Source: Reclinomonas americana ATCC 50394
Lineage: Eukaryota
NCBI GenBank assembly: GCA_048213135.1
Contig: PS015059.1
Span: 394,618-414,617 of the forward strand
Length of the DNA stretch: 20,000 bases
Direction of reading: 5' to 3'
Below, one piece after another: positions 1 through 20,000 of this stretch (its first letter is position 1; the number at the start of each line of letters is the position of its first letter). Made by a program: the position numbers and the translations under genes. The notes beneath the pieces were generated by a model. The model was not told the DNA's origin, searched no databases, and was given only the letters and a program-made list of their open reading frames with translations.

Positions 1-49
1 ATAATGAGAATGGGGGAGAGAGGGCGCATTCTCTTCACAGCTGCCACAC

Positions 50-1799
50 CTCGGGCGATGGATCTTTCAACTTGCGGAGAAGTGTGCGAATTGCGCGCAC
101 TTTGGTCATGGAGATGGCGTCGACATGCAGATCCTCGATAGCATGCCGGAAAGCTGCAGCGTGTTTCGTGGTTAGCGAAACACAAGGACTCTGTCCACAT
201 CAGCAAAAACGCACCAGCTGCGTCCGCCAGCTCCACTCGCACACTGCGCATGCTTTGATCACGATCCAACAGTACCATGATGGCCGCCATGACGGCGGTG
301 CACTGCATGTGCGAGAGAACTTCAGAAGCGGCAGCGGAAATAAACAAAAGATGTATGCAGTTCGGTACCTCCACTGGCGGCGCTGGCATCAACCGAATCT
401 CCTTCAAGTCGGCATCGCGCACATCGCGCAGTCCACGCATCCGCAGCAAGTCGATTTCCGCCTGCAGCGTCGCGCGTTGTGACTCGAATTGCGAGTACAA
501 GCTCACCACCTCCTCCAACTCGGCTTCGAGGTCAGCCGTGGTGGGAGGCGGTGGTTGCGTGCCGTGATCGGTGCTGGCAGGTGGTGCTGCTGCTGCTGCG
601 ACTGCTGCTGCTGCTGTGGCCTCCTGCCCGACTTGATCGCTTCCGCGGTGTCGACGAGGCCGCCACGTGCGGCGACCGGCTGCACCCACCGTGCGCAACT
701 GCAGTTGCACCTCGTGCAAGTCGCGCTCCCGTCGCTCCGCCTCGATTTCCTTTTCCACCACCGAGTCCAGCAGCGCCACTTTTTGAACGACGGCTCGGAT
801 CCACTTGCACATTTCCGCTGCCGCCATGGAGGAGCGACATACGGCCTGTGGGGAAGAGGCGAGAAGGAGTTGAGCGCAGGTAGGGGGCGGGATGGGGAAA
901 GGGTGCGTACCTCAGGCTCAAAATCTGGGTGATCGAGAAACATTTGCATGCGCTGCGGGAGGTCGCGGGGTAACCTGTCCAGCTGCATGTATCGCAGTTC
1001 CTCAAAGAGTTCCGCTGTGTGTGTGGGAGGGGGAAGGATAATGAGGAAAAAGGATTAAGGAGAGTCTTTGTAACAGCAATATTTTCCAGCACTTCTTCGC
1101 AAGTGATTCTAACTCTCCTGCGAACTCGTGAATGCATTCTTCCGTACCATAGTTGCCGTTCGATGTCTTCTCTGTGAATCACATGCTATGCACACTTGAC
1201 AGCCCCTGTTTGCTCCTCTGATGTATGAGGTTCTGTGCGTTCTGATGCAGCTTTCTCTCACTGTCGCAAGTTGCATGCGGCCTTCTGCTGTGGCGAAACA
1301 GTTGCCTTCTCTCCCTCTCTCTACTTGCTCTCTTACAAAGGCATTTCGCGCTTTGTGACTGTGCACTCGTTGCTTTCTGGCGCTGTTCCCTCACTGGAGG
1401 CTTCTGCGTGGATGTCTCTCGTGTCGCTGTTCTGCTGCCTCACGTCGCTCTCTCCTCTTCTGAATGCAGTCGTGTCTCCATTAACTCGCGGCGCAGACCA
1501 GCCTGTTCTGACGCGTTCTCCCTCACGTGACGACCCACCTGCAGAGTTCTCCAACATTGCCGGCTGTTTGTGCCCAAGCAGCACGGCCAGTGCATCAAGA
1601 ACAAGCTTAACCTGCTCCAACGTCGTCAGGGACGACAGAGAAGTTACAGAGGAACGACTGCGGACGAAACCTTGGTGGGCGGCTTGCGCATGGCACGCAG
1701 CTCGTTGACCGTGGCCAGCGAGAGTCCATTCAGCGTGTCGCTCAGCGCGTGCAAGGGCGCCTCGATGGCGCGGCGAGCAGAGCGCGCAGCGAGAAGGGC
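50..1799 (-). CDS. Partial multi-exon gene: coiled-coil protein with two tandem dynein heavy-chain stalk/microtubule-binding-domain (MTBD)-like modules; 5' end unresolved, 3' end runs off the window
   Basis: Phase-consistent GT-AG exons 1671-1799, 1539-1611, (possible 24-nt exon 1148-1171), 911-1014, 369-845, 215-302, 50-153. Module 1: LSLATVNELRAMRKPPTKVKLVLDALAVLLG...LFEELRYMQLDRLPRDLPQRMQMFLDHPDFEPEAVCRSSMAAAEMCKWIRAVVQKVALL. Module 2: VRDADLKEIRLMPAPPVECTAVMAAIMVLLD...FRHAIEDLHVDAISMTKVRAIRTLL. Both resemble the dynein stalk-head pattern E[LI][RK]S...PP..V..V..A...LL ... F.PE.V...S.AA..LCKW.RA (recognised by eye). Confidence 0.75.
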
Positions 1800-1968
1800 C
1801 TGATAGAGAGATAGGGAGGAGGGAGAAGGGCAAGGGATGAGAAGCGGAGAAGGTGAGAAAGGGAGACAAGAGCTGCATCCGTATATCATCACAAGACAAG
1901 GTTACTCTCTGCAGTGCACACACGCCTTGTCCTGCTTCTCTCTGTGTGCATGTGAAGAAGAACGAAGA

Positions 1969-2460
1969 GATGCGAGGCATGCAGACGTATCTCACGACAC
2001 AAGACAAAGCTTCTCTCTGCAAACGAGTGTGCATGCACATGCAGAGCCTTTTGCCCTTCGATTCTCTCTCTCTCTCAGAGTAAGATGATGCGAGGCATGC
2101 ATCCATCTCGCTGCAACACAAGGCTTCTCTCTGTGAATGAGTGTGCATGCACATGCAGAGCCTTTTGCTCTTCGTCTCTCTCTCAGAGTAAGATAATGCG
2201 AGGCACGCATCCATCTCGGCAACACAAGGCTTCTCGCCGCGAATGAGTGTGAATGCACATGCAGAGCCTCTGCCCTTCGTCTCTCTCTCTCTCTCGCTCT
2301 GGTTGCAACACAAGGCTGCTCGCTGCAAATGAGTGGGTGCATGTACATGCAGTGCCCTATGCTCTTCATCTCTTTCTCTCTCTCTCTCTCTCAGAGGAAG
2401 ATGATGCGAGACATGCATCCATCTCGTTGCAACACAAGGCTTCTCTCTGCGAACGACGCA
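1969..2460. repeat. Degenerate ~110-bp minisatellite, about 4-5 copies
   Basis: Recurring unit gatgcgaggcatgcatccatctcg..gcaacacaaggcttctctctg.gaatgagtgtgcatgcacatgcagagccttttgc..ttcg(tc)n-cagagtaagat, starting near 1969, 2087, 2196, ~2300 (partial) and 2403. Confidence 0.85.
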
Positions 2461-2641
2461 TGCGACTTGCTTCTCTCTTTCAAGAGCAAAGAGGAATGCA
2501 CGAAGACAAAAATCACGAAAAGACGATGCCTGTGCCATGTGTGTAAGCATGCTTGTGTGTGTGTGTGTGAGAGAGAGAGAAAAAGACAAGGTGATTGCAT
2601 GCAGAGGATTGATATCTCCTGGGTTTGCATGTCATGTGCCC

Positions 2642-2680
<39 letters not shown>

Positions 2681-2700
2681 NNNNNNNNNNNNNNNNNNNN
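2681..2700. other. Assembly gap (20 N) flanked by (CT)n and low-quality gtag/tacg sequence
   Basis: Run of N. Confidence 0.99.
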
Positions 2701-2791
2701 GTAGTAGTAGTAGTAGTAGTACGTACGTAACGTACGTACGTAGTACGTACGTACGTCGTCTCGTCCTCTACTACTACTCGTCTCTCGTCTC

Positions 2792-2839
<48 letters not shown>

Positions 2840-3094
2840 CGCGCATATGTGTGACAGCGTGTGCATGCGCGTGCATCAAGACAACTACGATTTCAAAACC
2901 CACACGCATCTCTCTCTCTCACACACTCACTCACTCTCTCACACACACCTTCATATAAGCAGCCTCATAGGCCACCAGTCGACTCTGCAACTCTGCCTCA
3001 CTCATTACGAAAAAAAAAACGACTGCTCATTTTCGCTCGAAAATCTCACTCACTCACACAACTTCTCACTCTCAGAGAGAGAGAGAGAGAGAGA

Positions 3095-3208
3095 ATGAGG
3101 GCGGCGAGTGGCTCCTCTGGTGCTAGTGGAAGCGCCTCTGCTCCTCCAGACCCGTTCTTGGTCGATTCCTCAATGTCGTACTCGGTGAGTGAGTGAGAGA
3201 GAGAGAGA

Positions 3209-3239
<31 letters not shown>

Positions 3240-4946
3240 TGTGAGAGAGAGAGAGGGAAAGAGCGAGAGTGAGAGAGAGTGTGAGAGAGTGAGAGGGAGA
3301 TTAGGCGAGGATAGTCGTCGCCTTACACACTTAATCTCTCGCCTTATCCTTGCCTTCCTCACTCTTTCTCTCTCTCTCACTCTCTCTCTCTCTCTCACTC
3401 ACTCTCACTCTCTCTCTCTCTCTCTCACTCCAGTTCCTTCCTGTGTCACTTCCTGCTTTCCTCTGATGCCTCTCTCCTTCTCACTTCCTTCCTCTCTTGC
3501 CTCACCTTGTGCCTTCCAGTCTTTCCTCTCCCTTCCTCCTCTTCCTCGTCTGCTCTCACTTCTTCTCAAGGTCACTCAGTCGCTCAGTTGCTGCCTCGCC
3601 CGTTCTCCCGTGCTTTCCTCTCATGCCTCTCTCCTCTTTCCTCACTGGCCATTCCTTATTCACTCCCTCACTTCTTCAGTCTCTCTTCTCTCGTTGCCTC
3701 TCCTTGTGCCTTCCAGTCTTTCCTCGCCTCTTCTTCCCAGCTTCCTCACTGTTCCTTTTTCACTTCCTCATTCACTGCACCTCACTTTCTCTTCTTCCTG
3801 CCCTGACTTCCTCTCTTGCCTCTCCTTGCGCCTTCCAGCCTTTCCTCGCCTTCTCTCTCTTCTTCTCAACTTGCACACTGTTCTCTTCTCACTCCTCAGT
3901 CACTCAGTTCCTTCCTCGCTTGTCGTCCCCTGCTTTCCTCTCATGTCTTCTGTCCCGCCTCCACTTCTTCAGTCTCTTTCTGTTTCCTCTCCTCGTGCCT
4001 TCCTGTCTTTCCTCACCCTTCCTTCCCCGTCCCCTTCCTTTCCGTCCTCATCTCTGTCCCCTCTGCTCCCTTCCTCACTCATCCTCCCAGGTCTTCATCA
4101 CTGCTTCACTGCCCTCAATCCCTTCTCTCAACCTCGCTCCTTCCCTTTCCTCTCTCACCCTTTCCTCCCTTTCCCCCCTTTAGGCCCAGGTCAAGGTCGT
4201 CGACCCTCGCTCATGGATGCGCACCCTCGAACGCGCCCGGGAACTGTGCGACGCCCTCAACGTGGCTGTCTCGCAAAAGACCACTCTGCGCGCAGAAGGG
4301 TGCGCGCGCGCGCTCTCTCTCTTTCTTCCCGCAGTGCTCACTCGTTTCCCCGCGTGTCACAGAAAGGACGACAGTCGCCTGAGCACTGAGATCCGCTCAC
4401 GAGAGCACTTTTTGCTGCGACAACTCGACCTTTTGCAGGCACAGCTGGCGGAGATGGCGCGCGATATGAACAAGTACAAGATGTTGCGTCGTCGTCGGTC
4501 GTCGGTGGATAATCTGCCGCAGTGCTCACGTTCTGCTGTGCACGTGCGAATGTGCAGCACGCAAGCGGAGGTGAGCAGGAGGAAGGGGCTGTTGCAGGAG
4601 CTGGTGGCGGATACGAAGCGCGTTCGCGATCGAATCTCGAGCACGCCGTCGGCGGCCAGGTGAGTGCGCCCTTTGCTCTGTGTCTTTTTCTTCCTCCTTC
4701 TCTCTTTCTTGCTGTCTCCATGTATGTCCGTTCTCCTTCACTGTCTTCTTCTTGTTCTCTCTCTGTCAGGAAGTGTGTGCGTTCTCGTTCCGACTCTCTC
4801 TGTGTGTGTGCGTTCTGCCTCGCTCCCTCTTTCCTTTTCTCCCTCTCTCCGAAGCATGCTCTCTCCCTCCCCCTCCCTCCCTCTATCTCTTTGTCCGCTC
4901 TCCCTCGCTGTCTTTTCTCTGTGTGAGAGATTGTTTGTCTCTTCCC

Positions 4947-4993
<47 letters not shown>

Positions 4994-6987
4994 CTCCCTC
5001 TCCCCTCACTCCCTCTCTCATTTCTCTCTCCCACTTTCCTCTTTCAGAGCACGTCTGGGCATCGGCAACAAGGCTCCCGCGTCGCCGTCCAACCCCGACC
5101 TGTCTGCCGACGACAGCGACAGCAACCCGCTGATGTCAGCGCAGGAGATCCGTCACGACACGGAGGCGCAAATGCGGAGTTTTGTCTTCGTGCTGTTGCA
5201 GTTGCTGCTGCTGCGCATGCCACTCACTCTGTCACACAGAACAAGACGAAGTGCTCGACCAGCTCAGCAAGTCATTTCGCACCTCCAAGGACATTGCGGT
5301 GGCGATTGGCACGGAGGTCGGTTGCCTTTTCATATCTGATTGTGCATCGTTGGGCTCACTCTGCGTTCCTGCAGCTCGACGGCCACAACCAGATGCTCGA
5401 CGATCTCGATCATGATGTGGAGGCCACCAACGCACGCATGGTCCGCGTGGTCAGCAAGACCAGTTGCGTGATGCATGACGCGTTTCCGTATCAACACTTT
5501 TATCCCCAATCTTGCTGCTGGTCTTGCCTTGCATTCTCGTATCCGGCCTCTCGCTCTCTCTCACACACACACGCACACGCACACAACACAATCTGCATAC
5601 GCACTCGCACGCACGCTGCGCAGCCTCTTTGTTCATGTTCCACGACTTAAATCTCCTTAACTAGCAGTCTTGTTGGCTCGCTGTCACTAATCTTTTTGTG
5701 TGCCTTTGTTGCCGCACTGTTGTCGTGCTGTCCTCTCTCTCTCTCTCNNNNNNNNNNNNNNNNNNNNNNNNNNNNNNNNNNNNNNNNNNNNNNNNNNNNN
5801 NNNNNNNNNNNNNNNNNNNNNNNNNNNNNNNNNNNNNNNNNNNNNNNNNNNNNNNNNNNNNNNNNNNNNNNNNNNNNNNNNNNNNNNNNNNNNNNNNNNN
5901 NNNNNNNNNNNNNNNNNNNNNNNNNNNNNNNNNNNNNNNNNNNNNNNNNNNNNNNNNNNNNNNNNNNNNNNNNNNNNNNNNNNNNNNNNNNNNNNNNNNN
6001 NNNNNNNNNNNNNNNNNNNNNNNNNNNNNNNNNNNNNNNNNNNNNNNNNNNNNNNNNNNNNNNNNNNNNNNNNNNNNNNNNNNNNNNNNNNNNNNNNNNN
6101 NNNNNNNNNNNNNNNNNNNNNNNNNNNNNNNNNNNNNNNNNNNNNNNNNNNNNNNNNNNNNNNNNNNNNNNNNNNNNNNNNNNNNNNNNNNNNNNNNNNN
6201 NNNNNNNNNNNNNNNNNNNNNNNNNNNNNNNNNNNNNNNNNNNNNNNNNNNNNNNNNNNNNNNNNNNNNNNNNNNNNNNNNNNNNNNNNNNNNNNNNNNN
6301 NNNNNNNNNNNNNNNNNNNNNNNNNNNNNNNNNNNNNNNNNNNNNNNNNNNNNNNNNNNNNNNNNNNNNNNNNNNNNNNNNNNNNNNNNNNNNNNNNNNN
6401 NNNNNNNNNNNNNNNNNNNNNNNNNNNNNNNNNNNNNNNNNNNNNNNNNNNNNNNNNNNNNNNNNNNNNNNNNNNNNNNNNNNNNNNNNNNNNNNNNNNN
6501 NNNNNNNNNNNNNNNNNNNNNNNNNNNNNNNNNNNNNNNNNNNNNNNNNNNNNNNNNNNNNNNNNNNNNNNNNNNNNNNNNNNNNNNNNNNNNNNNNNNN
6601 NNNNNNNNNNNNNNNNNNNNNNNNNNNNNNNNNNNNNNNNNNNNNNNNNNNNNNNNNNNNNNNNNNNNNNNNNCTCTTTCTCTTACCTAATCTCTTCGCC
6701 GTTTTGTCATTCCCACCGACGCCGCTGGACTTCGTTTCTGATGTTCTGTCCCTGTCGCACTCGATGCTGCAGAAAGCTCCCAGTCTACTGTTCTCGCTGT
6801 GATCTTTGTTGATGCACCCATTTCGCGTATCGTCGTCTCCTTCTCTCCCCCTTCCCCTCACCCATCCCTTCCCCTCTTTGCAGGCTGGGTCCTCGAGCAA
6901 GCCAAGAGCTCCATCGGCATCGTCACCATCACCCTCCTCCTGGTGCTGCTGGTGATTGTGTTCCTGCTCGTTTTCAAGGTCATTTGA
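3095..6987 (+). CDS. STX8: Syntaxin-8/Syn8-like Qc-SNARE (~275 aa, 8 exons, C-terminal TM anchor)
   Basis: Exons 3095-3184, 4184-4299, 4363-4482, 4558-4659, 5048-5178, 5240-5316, 5375-5462, 6884-6987 join in frame. N-terminal helical region includes ITQAEVSRRKGLLQEL (syntaxin-8-like). SNARE motif QDEVLDQLSKSFRTSKDIAVAIGTELDGHNQMLDDLDHDVEATNARM is followed by the TM tail IGIVTITLLLVLLVIVFLLVFKVI*. Syntaxin-8 versus syntaxin-6 assignment is by eye. Confidence 0.85.
3430..4180. repeat. Pyrimidine-rich degenerate repeats in syntaxin intron 1
   Basis: Motif cttgtgccttccagtctttcctc recurs near 3507, 3704 and 3825 within a CT-rich tract. Confidence 0.6.
5748..6673. other. Assembly gap (926 N) inside the last syntaxin intron
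   Basis: Run of N; exon phases on both sides (ACC A|GC TGG) are compatible without an additional exon. Confidence 0.99.
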
Positions 6988-11201: not shown

Positions 11202-13265
11202 CTCTCTCTCTCTCTCCCCAGATCTGCCGCAACAAGTCTACCACATGGTCGCTCTCTCGCATTCTCGACAATTCAGACAAACTTGCCTTACTGCCACCAA
11301 GTCTCTCACGCAGTCTCCCTCGCGCTCCCCGTCACTCATCTCTCACTTTCTCCTTCTCTCACGAACAAGCACGCGCGGCATCAGTCTGCATCGCGATGGT
11401 AAGTACGATCTGGCGATTGAGAATTATACGGCGGCGATTCAGAGGGAGCCGAGGAATCCAGTTGCGCGATAGGGGAGAAGAAAGGAGGGAAGGTGGAAGG
11501 GAGAGGGAGAGACTGGAAACGCAAATGTGCTGGAAGTGGGAGTCGAAGCGCCCCTTCCTGAACCAGTTGTCACCACCTCCCAGTTGTCACCACCTCCCCC
11601 TTCCTTCGTCTCACCTCTCTTCTTCTCCCCTCTCCTTCTCTCCTCCCATCTTTCCCCTTTTCTCCATTCTCCTTACCTCTCCCTCTTCTTTTCCCCTTTC
11701 CTTCCCTCTTCCCCCTTTCCCTCTCCTTCTCCCTCCCTCACCCCATTCCGCTCACCACCAAATGCTCGCGAAAAGCACCACGCAAATTGCTGTCGGTCAT
11801 CACATCGACAAATCCCACATCGCCCGACAGCAGCTTGGCCGCCAAATCACCAATATCACGGCCCGACGACGACAAGCTGGCGTGCTCCCGCATGATGCGC
11901 CACTCGCCGTAGACTGCCATCCACATCCACACTTGCAGTCCAAGATAGACGACAAAGACGACCGCGCAAGAGCCGACAATGATGAACGGCGAGGCAGCGC
12001 TTTGGTCAATTAGCCAGGCCAGCAGAAGGACTGCACATACACGGTTGAGCGGGTCCACGTGAACAACTGCAACACACACGCACGCGAGACGCAACAGCCA
12101 GTGGAGAAAAAATGAGTCAGTGCCACGACGGTGATCTCTTTCCGCATGCCGAGCGCGTCCCGAACATGCCGCACTGTCCAGGCCTTCCACAACATGGCGA
12201 TGCTGAGGATGAAACTCGTCCCGTTGCCGGTGATGGACACAAACCAGGCGAACCTACATCCTCTGCGGGTGATGACAATGTACACCAACAACAAGCACAA
12301 GCCCGAACATGCAAATCGCTCACTTGGCACATGCGCAGATGTTTTCCACTGAGCCCGAATTGAAGCGGCCTGTGAAGAGCTCAGGAGCGAGGATGGCCGG
12401 AATTCCGGCCGACAGGGCCAGCACCGAAAAGTTGACAATTAGCCAAATGGTAACAAGCCGCTTCTCGCTCACTTTCCTCTCGGCCTTGCGCACCGCCTCC
12501 GGATTCTTCGGCATGTACATGGGCATCGGTGTCGCCGTCTGTCGATCGCTCCTCTCCGGGGTCAGTCCTTCCGACGGTCTCGACGAGAAGGGCACAGAGT
12601 GCGGCAGCAATCCAGAGGAAGCTTCGCGTCGCTTGGCCTCCAGAAGGAGACGCGCACGATTGCCCGTGTATAACACCGCCAATCGATCGGCACGAAGCGA
12701 CTGCCACACGAGTTGAGCAGCAGAGGCAAGGGAATAGAGTGCGTATGGGAGTACGTAACATGAGCTCTCATGTACGACACAAAGCCCCACACTGTAAAGA
12801 TCGGAAACGCGCATAATCTGCAGGGAGAGGTGAGAGGGATGTGACAACAGCAGCTTGGGCGAGGGGCGGACCTGTAGAACTCTCCAAAGAGCAGAAACCA
12901 CAGACAGAAGGTGACAGTGCAGTTGCCGAGAATGATAAGCCAAGGGCCGCGTGGGCGCACAACAGGTGTGTTGCGGAACCAAATCCACATCTGCAATGAA
13001 TCACCAATGTCAATCTCTCTCAGTCATTGACTGAGTGCAGTCAATCAATGTTCGTATGTGTGAGTGTGAGTGAGACACAACGATGGTTGACACTGTCATG
13101 AAGAAGCCTCCGACGCCAAAGAAAGCTGTGCTCACTTCGAATGACCTGTGTGACGCGAGTGAGACAGAGGCAGACTGTGCGAATGAGTACTGACTCGACT
13201 GACCAGTCTTTGAAGTTGGTCTCGACTGAGATCAGCCATGCCTCGCAGCTGCCCAGCACACTCAT
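9790..13265 (-). CDS. 7TM-RGS protein, paralogue A (~552 aa, 13 exons): seven TM helices fused to a C-terminal RGS domain
   Basis: Exons 13204-13265, 13082-13145, 12872-12990, 12760-12817, 12324-12700, 12096-12253, 11756-12030, 10733-10753, 10476-10671, 10268-10305, 10087-10211, 9934-10014, 9790-9874. Seven hydrophobic segments with RNTPVVRPRGPWL, LRADRL and VRDALGMRKEI. RGS motifs AFREHLVEQLSVENLLFF, LAEEMYREFF...NELNL and LRMDCWPRFRNS. Exon phases, and most exon sizes, match paralogues B and C. Confidence 0.9.
11057..11320. repeat. Two-copy direct repeat (~95-bp core, ~165-bp period) inside intron 7 of 7TM-RGS A
   Basis: gatctgcc.ca.caagtcta...cgcattctcgacaattcagacaaa.ttgccttactgcc.ccaagtctc at 11057 and 11221, separated by a (CT)n tract. 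Confidence 0.85.
11370..11460 (+). other. Isolated TPR-encoding exon-like segment, antisense within intron 7 of 7TM-RGS A
   Basis: Pyrimidine tract plus aag acceptor, then TRGISLHRDGKYDLAIENYTAAIQREPRNP (TPR pattern G......G.Y..A...Y..AI...P), then a gttgcgc donor. No other exons of this gene were identified. Confidence 0.6.
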
Positions 13266-13667: not shown

Positions 13668-15785
13668 CTACCACATGCTGGCTGCTTGCACTCGGATTTT
13701 CAGTTCGGTTCCCTCGCGGGCTACTTCCTTGAAGCGCTCCGAAGTGCGGAATCTGTGCGACGTGCAGAGGTGAGCAGGTGTGTGTATCGATATGGGAAAC
13801 GTTGATGCAATCGTGGAAACCTTGGCCAGCAGTCCATGCGTAGTGTCCGCAGCACGCTCTTCAATGCCGGTCCAAACACGCTGTCTCCAGAAGGCGGCGG
13901 TCTGCGGAGAGGTGGCGAGATGAGAAGAGAATGGGACAAGGAGAGAAGGCAGAGAAAAGGCAAGGATAGAGCTTGGCGACAAGGACAGAATGTGTGCATA
14001 GAGATGCAGGGAGCAGGTATCAGAATGATGAAGCAGAGAACGAGACGAAAGAAGAAGAGGAAGGATCAAACACTTAACTCTCTAACTCCCAGATTCCGTT
14101 TTTCCTGTCCTGCTTCATTCCCATCCCCTGCTCTCCTTTCTTCTTCCCCTCGTTCACTGTCTATCCACTTCTCATTTCCCCATTCATCATTCGCACCCCC
14201 TATCTCCCTCTCCGTTTTTCTTGCGCCCATTGTTCCATACCCACTTTCTTCATTTCGCTTGTTCCCCCCTTTCTCCATGTTCTCTCTGTGTGCACCTCTA
14301 AGAGTTCACTACTCTCCCTCTCTTCGTCGATCTCACTGTATCGTGCGGTCCTCGCCTCTTCTCTATCTTCTCCTCTCTTCATTCTCTTTAGTATCGGGTT
14401 CTCCTTCATCTTTCCCTCGTTCACTCTCTTTAATCCTTCTCTGCCCTTTCCCTTCTCCTCCCCTTCGACCCCCCCTTCCCTCCTCATGCACGCAACGGAT
14501 GAGATCCCAGCGGATCAAAATCCACTGGCTCCTCCGCACACACGGCCTGAGCGCGCTCCCAGAAAGACATGGTCGCCGGCTGCTCGAACTTGTTGCGTAC
14601 TCGGTTAATGGCCGACGCCGGCTATGCGGGCAGACAAGAGTCAGGCGCGAATGTGCTTCAATCCCGTCCTGCAAGCACCCTCTCTCTCGCTCTCACCAAG
14701 TTCAATTCGTTGACAGCGTCGTCAAGGAAGAAATCTGCGGCGGTGCAAGTGGGTGAGCAATCTCACGTTGGGAGACGTCCGTCTCCCACACCAACCTCTG
14801 TACATCTCCTCGGCCAGCTGCTCCGATGCATTACCCGGCACCGACTCCACTGCACCGCTGCTACTGCCGATGCTGGCCGGTGCCGTCCTCCTCCCCTTGC
14901 CCTCCCTCACGAGCGCCGCTCGCCACTCTTGGTATCGCTCAAAGAACAGCAACTGCGTTGCGATAGGATGAGAAGCCTGTACCATGCACAACACGCATAT
15001 CTCCCACTCACACACTCACATTCTCCACGCTGAATTGTTCCTGCATAACAGAATGAGACGTAAGCGAAAGTCTAGTCGTCGTCGATGCCTTCATCACGCA
15101 CAAACTCACCACCAGGTGCTCACGGAATGCACCGCGCAGCTCACCGTCGGTCATCACATCGTGGAAGCCGACCTCACCCGACAGCAACTTCTCCGCCAGA
15201 TCGTCACCAGCAGCACCCGCCAGCTGCGCACTTGCCGCTGCCTGCCGCATTATCCTCCACTCCTTGTAGATGACAGTCCATGTCCACGACTGGATGGCCA
15301 CCTGCGCCAGGAAAATCACGGCTGCCGACCCCGTGGTCACAAAGGGTGAGGCCACGGTCGTGTCGGCCGACCACGAAATCAACAAATCTGCCATAGGCGC
15401 AGCGTGGGCAATCCCGGCGTAGCGACCGCCATGCACAATCTGCAACGCAACATGTCGTGCTGACAAAGTTCACCACGGCAATGGCGGTGATCTCCTTGCG
15501 CATACCGAGTGCGTCCTTGACGTGGCGCACCGACCACGATTTCCACATCATGATGAGGCTCAAGAATACGTTGGCGGCGTTGGCCGCGATCGATACGTAC
15601 CAAGCGAACCTGGGAAGGGGGAAGAGTGGGGAAGGGGGAAGGGAGAAGGGAGAAGGGGGAAGGGGGAAGGGGAAGGGAAGGGAAAGGGGGAAGGCAAAGG
15701 GGGAAGGGGGAAGGGGGAAGAGGGAAGGGGGAAGGGGGAAGGTCAGAGAGCGAGAGGAAAGGAAACATGCATTCAACAAAGGGAG

Positions 15786-15818
<33 letters not shown>

Positions 15819-17955
15819 TAAGGAAGGCACGAGAGGGAGAGAGGAAGAGAGAGAAAGAATAAGTGAGAAGGAGAAGAGAAAGAGAGAGCGCAACAGGCAA
15901 GCAAACTGAGAGAGAGAGAGAAATGCCAGAGATAAAGAGGCAGAGAGAGAAAGAGAGAGACAGAAAAGAAAGACAGCAAAGACTACGAGATGGAGAAACC
16001 AAGGAGGACAGAGATCAGCTTTGACCACTACGCGCATACACACACGAGTTGAGAAAGAGAGAATGTGTGCGCGTGAGAAAGAGAGATGAAAGAGATAGAG
16101 ATACTGGAAGCGAGGCACAGAGTGTGAGACTCAGAAATCATGGAGGAGAGATTGCGAAGCAGAGAGGGAGGCAAGCAAAGTGACGAACAGAGAGAGAAGA
16201 GGCAGAACAAAAAATGGAGAGGAGAGCAGAGGAATCAAAGAAACAGACGGAGTGCACAGACGCAAACACACATACAGAGAGAGAAAGCACTGAGTTGCTC
16301 GTGGACTCTGATCCTCAGAAAATTCAAGCACTCTCCTCATCGCTTCTTTCGTCTGCTCTCTCCCTCTCTCTCTTCGCCTCCCTCTCTCCCTTTCTCCTTT
16401 TCCTTTCCCACAAACCTGGCACACGCACACAACTCGTTGTAATCCATCGCCGTATAGCTGTTGGTGAACATGGCCGGGTCCGCCGCCGCCGGGATGATCG
16501 CCGAAATGGCCAACACAATCGACGTGTAGATGGCCCAGGAGATTAGCAACCGTCGCTCGCTGACCTTTTTCATCGCATTCTGCATCGCCTGGTTATTCAA
16601 CGGCACATACTTGGGCGGCGGCTGCGGCACATCGCCATGCCGATTCGGCAGCAGCCCATCCGATGGTCTCGCCGAGTACGGCACCGAGTGCGGCAACTGC
16701 AAACTCGACGCCTCTCGTCGCTTCGCCTCCAACAGCAATCGTGCTTGATTGTTCGAATACAGCACCTTGATGCGATCCGCACGCAGCGACTGCGAAGCAG
16801 CTCAATTCAGCGATCGGAGAAGCAAGTGACGACGAAGCGGAGAAGAAGAGGCGCAACATGAGCTCGCATGCTGGCCGTGAAGCCCCACAGTGTAAACACA
16901 GGAAATACGCATAGTCTGCCACGCCACGTCAGTTCACCAGACAATATCACGCGACCACACAGTGTAGTGGTACGCACTGTCGTTGTGTGCCTATCAGCAG
17001 AAACCACATGCACAGCGAGGTGGAGGCATTGGCGAATATGACCAGCCACGGGCATCGTGGTCGCAGGATCGGTGAGTTGCGCATGACGAGCCACAGCTGC
17101 AATAGAGGGGGTAATGGAGAGGGTGTCAGAGGGGGTAATGGGGAAAGGAGGGAGTATGGAAGGGAGAGAGAGGAAGAGGAGGAGAAGAAGAAGAAGAGGA
17201 AGAAGAAGGCGAAGAAGAAGAAGAAGAGGGAGGAGGAGGAGGAGGAGGAGGAGGAGGAGGAGGAGGAGGAGGAGGAGGAGGAGGAAGAGAGAAGAAGAAG
17301 ACNNNNNNNNNNNNNNNNNNNNGAGGAGGAGGAGGAGGAGAAGAAGGGGAGAATGAGATGGAGGAGAAGACGAAGAAGACGAGGAAGAAGAAGAAGGACA
17401 AGGAGAAGGAGAGGAAGAATAAGAAGAAGAAGAAGAGAAGAAGTAGAAGTGGAAGAAGATGAAGGGAAAGAACTGCCCGTCTGTCATCTTCCTCTCTTTC
17501 TCTGCCGTGTCTTCTCTGTTCCTCTTTCTCTTTCACTCCCTCACTGCCTCTCTCTCTCTCGCTCTCTCTCTCCCTCTCCCTCTCACTCGTTCATTCATTC
17601 ATCCTCTCCCCCCTCCTCTCTCTCTCTCACAAGGCTCTCCCTGCCAATCGACCTCCTTTCATCCACTCATTCTCCTTGTCTGTCTTTCTCTCTCTCTTTC
17701 ATTCTCTCCCCCTCTTCTCTCTCACACACACATGTGAGAGTCATGTACGCAACAACAGCTGCAATGGAGTTCACTGCGCCAGCTGTGGCAAAGAGAATGG
17801 TGCTGACATGATACACCCTGCGTGCAGTCAACAACAACATGTCACATGTGACTGCAGTCTTTACGCGTTTCGCTGCTCATGCGCGCAAAGTACCATGGAT
17901 GATAGTTGAGGATAAGATGCGTGTACCAGCCGACACAGTCGCCCAGGGCGCTCAT
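13668..17955 (-). CDS. 7TM-RGS protein, paralogue B (~539 aa, 13 exons)
   Basis: Exons 17894-17955, 17754-17817, 16978-17096, 16858-16915, 16416-16789, 15452-15609, 15110-15387, 15020-15040, 14796-14952, 14697-14734, 14497-14621, 13821-13901, 13668-13752. Start MSALGDCVGWY aligns with MSVLGSCEAWL of A. Motifs RNSPILRPRCPWL, VKDALGMRKEI, FREHLVEQFSVEN, NELNL and DCWPRF are present. Confidence 0.9.
17303..17322. other. Assembly gap (20 N) inside an intronic (GAG/GAA)n microsatellite
   Basis: Run of N within the 17165-17460 purine triplet repeats. Confidence 0.99.
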
Positions 17956-18489: not shown

Positions 18490-19927
18490 TTACCACACGC
18501 TGGCAGTGGCAGCCTGCAAGCGAATTCTCATCTCTATGCCCTCTCGTGAGGCCTCCTTGAAGAGTTCGGAGTTGCGGAATCTACCACACCACGCTGCATG
18601 TAAGCCGAAGGGTGAATCTGTCGACGCAACAACAACAACGACGACAACGCACCTCGGCCAGCAGTCCATTCGCAGCGTGCGCAACACGCTTTTCAGTGCC
18701 GGACCAAACACACCATCTCCCGACGGCGGAGCACTGCGCATTTTACCACGAATGAGCAAAACTGCGACGTCTCCTTGCACATTCACACACGCAACGGATG
18801 TGAACCAAGCGGGTCAAAGTCCACTGGCTCCTCAGCGCACACGGCTTGCACGCGCTCCGGGAACGACATGTTTGCTGGCTCCTCGAATTTCCTTCGCACG
18901 CGAGTCATGGCAGAGGCCGGCTGGTGGTACGGTGAGCATCGTTTGTGGACGGAGTCTCGCACGAACTCACTCACCACATTGAGCTCACTTGGCGCATTCA
19001 CCGCAAAGAACTCTGCGGGTGACGACTCGAATGAGTGCACTTCACGACCTTTTGCCAGGCCCCCACAACACTCACCTCTGTACATCTCCTCCGCCAGCTG
19101 CTCGGAGTGGCCGACGTGCGAGAACGGCGACGACAACACGTCACCACTCTTGAGGCTGGCCACACTGCCCAGCGACTGCGAGGACTGATCCCCGACTGGC
19201 TGTCGCAGTCCCTTGCCCTCTCGCACCAGAGCCGCACGCCATTCTTGGTGCCTCTCAAAAAACAACAGCTGAACACGCAAAGATATGAGCCAATCTGTAA
19301 CAAGTTTGCCCTTGTCCACCACCAAACGCACATTCTCCACACTGAGTTGCTCCTGTGCATCAAAAAGCGCGCGAGGGTGAGCGAGTACGCACAACAGGGT
19401 TTCTCAACCACCGAGACACGAACCACCAGGTGCTCCCGAAACGCGTCTCGCAGCGCCGAGTCGGTCATCACATCGACAAAGCCGACGTCCCCATCCAGCA
19501 GCTTCTCCGCGAGTCCATCACGATCGCCTCCACCAATCGTTGACGAAAGGCTTCTCTCCCGACGAAGCAGGCGCCACTCTCTGTAGATGACGAGCCAAGT
19601 GATCACTTGCAGGATGCAAAACGCCGAGACGATGCACGCGGCTGAGCCGACGATGATGAACGGCGAAATGGCTGTTCTGTCAATCGCCCACGACGTCACT
19701 AAATCTGCACACACAAGTATGTCAGCCGACAAACAAGAAACTGACGTGAGTCGGTCCCTTTCACGCAACAGCCGGTGCTGAAAAAGTGCACCATGGCGGC
19801 CACCGTAATCTCCTTGCGCATACCGAGTGCGTCCTTGACGTGCCGAATTCTCCACGCCTTCCACAACATGACGATGCTGAACAGGAAGCTGATGCCGTTG
19901 CCGGTAAGCGATACCGCGTAGGCGAAC
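18490..19927 (-). CDS. 7TM-RGS protein, paralogue C (3' part; exons 1-5 lie beyond the window end)
   Basis: Exons 19770-19927, 19424-19704, 19332-19352, 19076-19268, 18975-19012, 18796-18920, 18653-18733, 18490-18580 are homologous to exons 6-13 of A and B (VKDALGMRKEI, FREHLVEQLSVEN, SELNV, DCWPRFRNS). Confidence 0.88.
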
Positions 19928-20000
19928 CTGGAGCCACAGGGGAGATATGAGGTCGAAGGAGAGAGGGGGGAAGGGAAGGAGGAGGAGGAGGAGGAGGAGG

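Follow-up and report, generated by a model that had tools for sequence, protein, structure and literature searches.

The dynein heavy chain's microtubule-binding domain (MTBD) has been investigated almost exclusively in the setting of a motor, whose tip it forms and whose ATPase ring switches its affinity by way of the stalk. As described in the relevant sections of a study of engineered stalk fusions (PMC6629372), the MTBD consists of six short bundled helices carried on an antiparallel stalk of two coiled-coil helices (CC1 and CC2); it binds at the tubulin intradimer interface with an affinity governed by the registry of CC1 against CC2, a registry altered by the AAA ring, it needs helices H1, H3 and H6 for its high-affinity microtubule-bound state, and in some axonemal dyneins it carries a flap insert. 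Here we describe a gene on the minus strand of a 20,000-nucleotide stretch of Reclinomonas americana ATCC 50394 (assembly GCA_048213135.1, contig PS015059.1, positions 394,618 to 414,617; hereafter the window, numbered from its first letter) that reads as at least two such stalk-borne heads in tandem, unit 1 and unit 2. We consider it moderately probable that its predicted product is a motor-less tandem-MTBD protein, a passive multivalent microtubule binder built from repeated dynein-derived units.

The closest known family is the stalk and MTBD of the dynein heavy chain itself (PF12777 'MT'; 8i3j_A, 6l4p_B of outer-arm gamma, 6kjo_A of cytoplasmic dynein, and 2rr7_A). Similar to these, unit 1 is colinear with a heavy chain from the end of CC1 through the complete MTBD into the start of CC2, and shares the E-x-R-A-M-x-x-P-P-x-x-V-K-L-V first helix, a P-D-F motif and the S-x-A-A-x-x-C-x-W last helix. 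Unit 2 gives a weaker match to the same columns of the profile. However, whereas a heavy chain possesses one MTBD in an MT region of ~350 residues between AAA4 and AAA5 (as in the reference dynein L001, see below), here at least two MTBDs follow each other on stalk arms of ~30-45 residues, the tentative ATG lies directly before the first arm, no AAA module is present in the window, there is no insert of flap size, and the CC2 proline has been lost. The SRS-MTBD fusions, engineered for structural studies, are similar, as described in PMC6629372, in that an MTBD sits on a shortened coiled coil cut from the AAA ring with its affinity set by a fixed CC1/CC2 registry, and these constructs show that such a unit can bind microtubules by itself; they differ in being artificial and single-headed, with 12 heptads of stalk and a foreign globular base. 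The dynein survey PMC5100056 describes aberrant stalks and, in the passages on these, no tandem heads. In our literature search we found no report of motor-less or tandem dynein MTBD proteins, in keeping with the initial annotation of this DNA, made from the sequence alone, which knew of no characterised family with such an architecture. What is new here is the tandem, stalk-bearing, spliced form, the MTBD itself being a known domain. In principle repeat-type structural microtubule-associated proteins such as tau and MAP2 are also alike, in that several weak microtubule-binding units in series lend them avidity and the ability to space or bundle microtubules, but they have no relationship to our units in sequence or fold, and their repeats are short and disordered rather than folded helical domains.

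Gene model and the exon joining the two units

Read on the minus strand, with frame and splice sites checked by script, the predicted gene comprises seven GT-AG exons from 3005 to 50 that join in frame to 344 codons, separated by introns of 1149, 59, 524, 65, 66 and 61 nt in that order. Its exons, and the first intron, are as follows.

2949-3005, minus strand: tentative exon 1, an ATG and 18 codons, MSEAELQSRLVAYEAAYMK, with the start of unit 1 CC1 (the first stalk helix); donor gtgtgt
1800-2948, minus strand: intron 1, 1149 nt as assembled, with a 114-bp tandem repeat, (TC)n tracts and a 20-N gap at 2681-2700
1671-1799, minus strand: exon 2, unit 1, the end of CC1 and the first MTBD helix, ending in NELRAMRKPPTK (PPTK); followed by a phase-0 intron of 59 nt
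1539-1611, minus strand: exon 3, unit 1, VKLVLDALAVLLGHKQPAMLENSA; followed by a phase-1 intron of 524 nt
911-1014, minus strand: exon 4, unit 1, exactly 104 nt, (A)ELFEELRYMQLDRLPRDLPQRMQMFLDHPDFEPE, ending in DFEPE; followed by a phase-0 intron of 65 nt
369-845, minus strand: exon 5, 477 nt, with the last MTBD helix of unit 1, AVCRSSMAAAEMCKWIRAV, a short CC2, the linker, and the CC1 and first MTBD helix of unit 2, ending in DLKEIRLMPAPPVE; the exon closes on PPVE and is followed by a phase-0 intron
215-302, minus strand: exon 6, unit 2, CTAVMAAIMVLLDRDQSMRSVRVELADAA; followed by a phase-1 intron of 61 nt
50-153, minus strand: exon 7, unit 2, the second exon of exactly 104 nt, (A)FRHAIEDLHVDAISMTKVRAIRTLLRKLKDPSPE, ending in PSPE before a GT donor

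The two units are held together by exon 5, which runs unbroken from the last helix of unit 1 through a short returning helix and a basic Ala/Pro-rich linker to the outgoing helix and first MTBD helix of unit 2. Since this single exon joins both, the units do not belong to separate genes, unless an internal promoter separates them, and the earlier placing of the two in one reading frame is upheld. An exhaustive search with the exon through 1.8 billion representative proteins returned a sole relative, P0001 (162 residues, E 1.9e-4, 36-37% identity over the whole exon), a singleton cluster from one 838-bp metagenomic contig, and this protein spans the same unit 1/unit 2 junction, with MC(K/R)WIRAV at one end, IDLL..RDVR..DLK(E/D)IR.M..P.E at the other and a linker that differs. 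Because P0001 conserves both ends of the exon while the linker has diverged, selection appears to have acted on the domain parts. In the protein collection no longer protein containing the 159-residue exon was found, and none matched profile A1, made from window pieces of both units, at E<=10; a search for related loci with alignment A2 gave 233 pattern matches in metagenome contigs and 253 in genome contigs, with none confirmed in either set.

The introns between the exons in 1799..845 are validated by the alignments of unit 1 with dynein, which run ungapped across the exon junctions. In unit 2 we correct the earlier annotation in one respect, as the intron after PPVE (368-303, 66 nt) ends at 303 (cag|TGC); with the 303/302 boundary no gap is needed to align units 1 and 2 at the junction (PPTK|VKLVLDALAVLLG against PPVE|CTAVMAAIMVLLD), and the alignment to the dynein profile is ungapped there too. 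An end of this intron at the nearer AG at 320 was rejected, as the frame is then broken, and a reading with no intron at this place (a 22-codon in-frame read-through) is less likely, given that the unit 1 and dynein alignments are ungapped with 368-303 removed. The description that had been given of two stalk-head-like units and a linker on the minus strand agrees with the sequence in every listed feature, and both units indeed possess a phase-0 intron two residues after the PP motif, a phase-1 intron and then a 104-nt exon ending in PE.

At the 5' end, the tentative exon 1 has an in-frame stop 7 codons upstream of its ATG, and its junction with exon 2 (VAYEAAYMK|ALL) aligns with VAAEAAATAKAI of the L001 dynein; a second in-frame ATG at ~1889 may be an alternative start codon. 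The 114-bp tandem repeat of intron 1 lies at 2000-2295 (2.7 copies, 84% matches) and is rich in GCATGC-type motifs, with (TC)n and (GA)n microsatellites flanking it at 2781-2837, 3187-3300 and 3358-3430. Within the linker, 689-624 on the minus strand is a possible extra in-frame intron of 66 nt (gtgggt...gggcag), comparable in size to the other short introns, that would remove the basic stretch VGAAGRRTWRPRRHRGSDQVGQ.

At the other end the frame is still open at the donor GT at 49-48, so the gene extends past the window start. It is conceivable, and on balance doubtful, that the two heads form the microtubule-targeting N-terminal part of a larger protein, with more MTBD units or an enzymatic, scaffold or membrane domain beyond the window start, in which case the main job of the protein would be to place that other domain on microtubules and not to cross-link them. 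The open frame and the unfinished unit 2 are consistent with this, as is P0001, which as the junction fragment of its short contig is silent on total length. We have nothing direct against such a larger protein, which overlaps with a passive multivalent binder in that the heads would still be passive microtubule binders, and were it correct the gene would still represent a novel route by which a protein is directed to microtubules.

Homology of the two units to the dynein stalk tip

For comparison we used two reference dyneins from metagenomic contigs, fetched with a degenerate DNA pattern for a motif common to unit 1 and DNAH1. L001 (contig 1-5727) has an uninterrupted frame of 985 residues, reaching from AAA3 to AAA5, in which Pfam finds AAA_7, AAA_lid_1, AAA_8, MT (571-916) and AAA_9, and is a genuine dynein heavy chain in conventional order; L002 (contig 1-1727), with an MT-positive exon, is a second genuine heavy chain. 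The intron that L002 carries inside its MTBD sits at a different position from the introns of the window gene.

Spliced unit 1 aligned to L001 with a Smith-Waterman score of 140 (shuffles: mean 40.5, sd 6.0, maximum 69, with 0/1000 as high), colinearly from unit residues 11-171 to dynein residues 634-815, inside the MT region of 571-916, with 47 of 166 aligned positions identical. The motif used for fishing is shared with unit 1 and inflates this whole-unit score, a caution that is countered by a motif-free test: when the 15 fishing residues were removed, the following 107 residues scored 88 against L001 (0/1000 shuffles), ungapped to 729-815, and the same residues scored 101 against the MT-positive exon of L002 (0/1000 shuffles). 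The 51 residues before the motif were not significant against L001, with 669/1000 shuffles as high. Exon 4 taken by itself scored 45 against L001 residues 732-763, a value reached by 1/1000 shuffles, and a profile of the two dyneins gave the whole of unit 1 59.9 bits, where the top shuffle had 9.5. In the region of exon 3, unit 1 has ~18 residues fewer than L001, at the site of the flap insert of some axonemal dyneins. As judged by these comparisons, the homology of unit 1 to the stalk tip and MTBD of dynein is clear.

Database searches point the same way. Profile A1 retrieved 11 PDB chains at E<=10, of which 10 are named dynein heavy chain and the eleventh is a 4625-residue 'AAA+ ATPase domain-containing protein'; all 11 matches fall at the junction of CC1 with the first MTBD helix, the best being the DNAH1 MTBD 8i3j_A (E 0.04). 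The alpha-only profile A4 had one PDB match, again the DNAH1 MTBD (E 0.91), and the best PDB match of the 104-nt exon of unit 1 was to a 4069-residue chain at 2793-2824 (E 1.1). In the ESM Atlas, a contiguous stretch of 210 residues had PF12777 in 29 of its 30 named neighbours, with a top score of 0.91 and 176/256 features, while the 34-residue exon gave no usable match. AlphaFold2 on the contiguous 845-216 predicted helices at 2-60 and 103-151 with a low-confidence linker between them, the model being poor overall (mean predicted local distance difference test score, pLDDT, 58.6).

Unit 2, of which the first two thirds lie in the window, reached 21.8 bits against a profile made of the two dyneins together with unit 1 (maximum shuffle 12.9). 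Its profile alignment is colinear over positions 45-119, and it is identical to L001 at 17 of 76 aligned positions. Along with the profile scores against the dyneins alone, discussed below, this suggests with moderate confidence that unit 2 is homologous to the dynein MTBD and its flanking stalk helices, and far more divergent than unit 1. The resemblance of both modules to the dynein MTBD that the initial annotation proposed is thus supported by profile and pairwise homology, strongly for unit 1 and moderately for unit 2.

That the two units arose by internal duplication had also been proposed. Three equivalent intron positions with the same phases (0, 1, 0), the two 104-nt exons and the common dynein profile columns all argue for it. 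The direct similarity of unit 1 to unit 2 is weak and does not rise above shuffles: their local score is 54 (z 3.7) and the maximum of 500 shuffles is higher, at 70, with 17 of 76 aligned positions identical. On the strength of the shared gene structure, the units would be products of an old internal tandem duplication, older than the split from the organism of P0001.

Motor domains in the window and the predicted mode of action

The initial annotation saw no motor, and by profile and tblastn we likewise found no AAA module within the 20-kb window. A hidden Markov model (HMM) of the two-dynein profile was run against 546 six-frame pieces of the window, and only the two MTBD exon frames fell below E 0.01; with the dynein-only HMM the values over these pieces were E 3.7e-4 for exon 5 and E 0.0064 for exon 2. 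A full-stalk profile run over the window found nothing further, tblastn of the AAA2-AAA5 pieces of L001 against the 20 kb had a best E of 0.13 with no AAA match, and Pfam found no dynein AAA family among the long upstream open reading frames. No AAA4 precedes CC1 in the upstream 18 kb, save for what two runs of N may hide (2681-2700, in intron 1 between microsatellites, and ~5750-6650, upstream of the neighbouring gene), and as the neighbouring plus-strand gene starts at ~4184, ~1.2 kb is left upstream of the tentative ATG. The stalk of unit 1 amounts to ~45 residues of CC1 and ~30 of CC2, compared to 346 residues for the MT region of L001. The predicted gene product therefore departs from a heavy chain in the features that can be tested here, having no AAA4 upstream, more than one MTBD and only short stalks.

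These observations bear on the idea that the exons are what is left of a conventional dynein heavy chain gene, as a decaying pseudogene or as the product of a scaffold mis-assembly in which two stalk tips were brought together, which we regard as very unlikely. This is a draft assembly, and the two N runs would fit such an origin. However, all six exons between 1799 and 50 have open frames and canonical GT-AG sites, and the units lie within 1.75 kb of gap-free sequence, joined by one exon whose junction P0001 keeps within an open frame while conserving mainly the domain parts rather than the linker. Moreover, no remnant of AAA3, AAA4 or AAA5 was detected in the 20 kb, and the stalk helices are far shorter than those of dynein, with unit 1 covering 634-815 of an MT region of 571-916.

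Considering a motor-less tandem-MTBD protein, then, as our preferred interpretation, the window would hold the 5' part of its gene, and the product would consist of repeated 'mini-stalk plus head' units copied from a dynein heavy chain with no AAA+ ring before them. Each unit would comprise ~35-45 residues of CC1, a flap-less MTBD of the six-helix type and ~30 residues of CC2, and the units would be linked by a flexible Ala/Pro-rich linker of ~50 residues. Each head may dock on the tubulin intradimer interface in the manner of the dynein MTBD. Without an ATPase to slide CC1 against CC2, the short hairpin would lock each head in one affinity state, and we infer from such a fixed state that the protein would be a passive, ATP-independent, multivalent microtubule binder. 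Tethered flexibly, two or more heads would gain avidity and could bridge neighbouring tubulin dimers, protofilaments or microtubules, which suggests a role as a stabiliser, cross-linker or tether. More tentatively, and with somewhat less than even odds, this gene may be the founding member of a family of microtubule cross-linkers or rulers that work without ATP and carry several heads on fixed-registry mini-stalks, present in at least two poorly sampled eukaryotes, that is, a group of dynein-derived structural microtubule-associated proteins (MAPs). If the protein does carry two or more heads on short, closed stalks and no ring, the MTBD head would be a portable microtubule-binding module whose affinity state is fixed by sequence alone, motor parts would have been recycled into structural MAPs, and the gene would offer both a naturally occurring system in which to probe the registry model of affinity control and a new candidate component of stable microtubule arrays in protists.

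Several of our results weigh against this interpretation. Pairwise, unit 2 scored 38 against L001, which is not significant (427/1000 shuffles as high), the best local alignment falling on the homologous first helix, and against the profile of the two dyneins it had 11.4 bits, which exceeded all shuffles (0/1000) by the narrow margin over a maximum of 11.2. P0001 alone had no match to the dynein-only profile (60/1000 shuffles as high). Pfam on single exons and read-through stretches (24-159 residues against a model of 344 positions) returned no PF12777 at E<=10, and on exon pieces nothing but sub-threshold chance matches (DUF6545, DLIC). In the PDB, the whole-exon profile A2 matched no dynein and retrieved BcsG alone, by way of the Ala-rich linker; a search with the whole exon itself produced nothing beyond noise from low-complexity or coiled-coil sequence, and the last-helix piece alone had 0 matches. 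The recognition value of the ESM Atlas result, 1603, is below the level that the tool sets for a strong high score, and makes that result a lead only. The N runs interrupt the upstream sequence, and the last third of unit 2, with the 3' part of the gene, lies beyond the window start, where AAA5/AAA6 or unrelated domains may follow. Finally, the proline of the 'V-x-P-K' in CC2 of L001 and L002 is missing in unit 1, and unit 2 is without the CC1 proline; these losses may have altered the behaviour of the stalk base.

Some of this divergence is what would be expected if the modules had kept the MTBD fold and lost microtubule binding, and were reused as a helical protein-protein interaction domain or a structural repeat, a possibility that we think unlikely. 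Identity to L001 is low in both units (47/166 and 17/76), the stalk-base prolines are lost, and Pfam had no match for any single exon. Yet the best-kept stretches are the first helix, whose E-x-R-x-M-x-x-P-P occurs in each unit and in part in P0001, and the last helix (S-x-A-A-x-x-x-C-x-W-I-x-A); we infer that these two helices are H1 and H6, which argues for retained binding by passive heads.

Sequence surroundings

The window has ~55% GC and is rich in (CT)n microsatellites, in addition to its two N runs. Head-to-head with the tandem-MTBD gene, a neighbouring gene of several exons lies at 4184-5500 on the plus strand; the exon before 5375-5470 reads EQDEVLDQLSKSFRTSKDIAVAIGTE, and exon 5375-5470 weakly matches the SNARE motif of syntaxin-6 (PDB 2nps_D, E 0.42). 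Pfam on pieces of this gene had no match. A SNARE identity is tentative and draws partly on motifs known for such proteins. Further away, at ~11700-13000, ~15000-16800 and ~19000-20000 on the minus strand, at least three paralogous genes, each of several exons, are arrayed in tandem, for which we found no Pfam family and, with a neighbouring 333-residue open reading frame as the query, no homologue in the protein collection. The members of the array share the blocks ...AEKLL(S/D)G(D/E)VGF.DVMTD..LR.AFREHLVV and ...QSLRADR..VLY..N.ARLLLEAKRREAS, and possess hydrophobic, membrane-like stretches.

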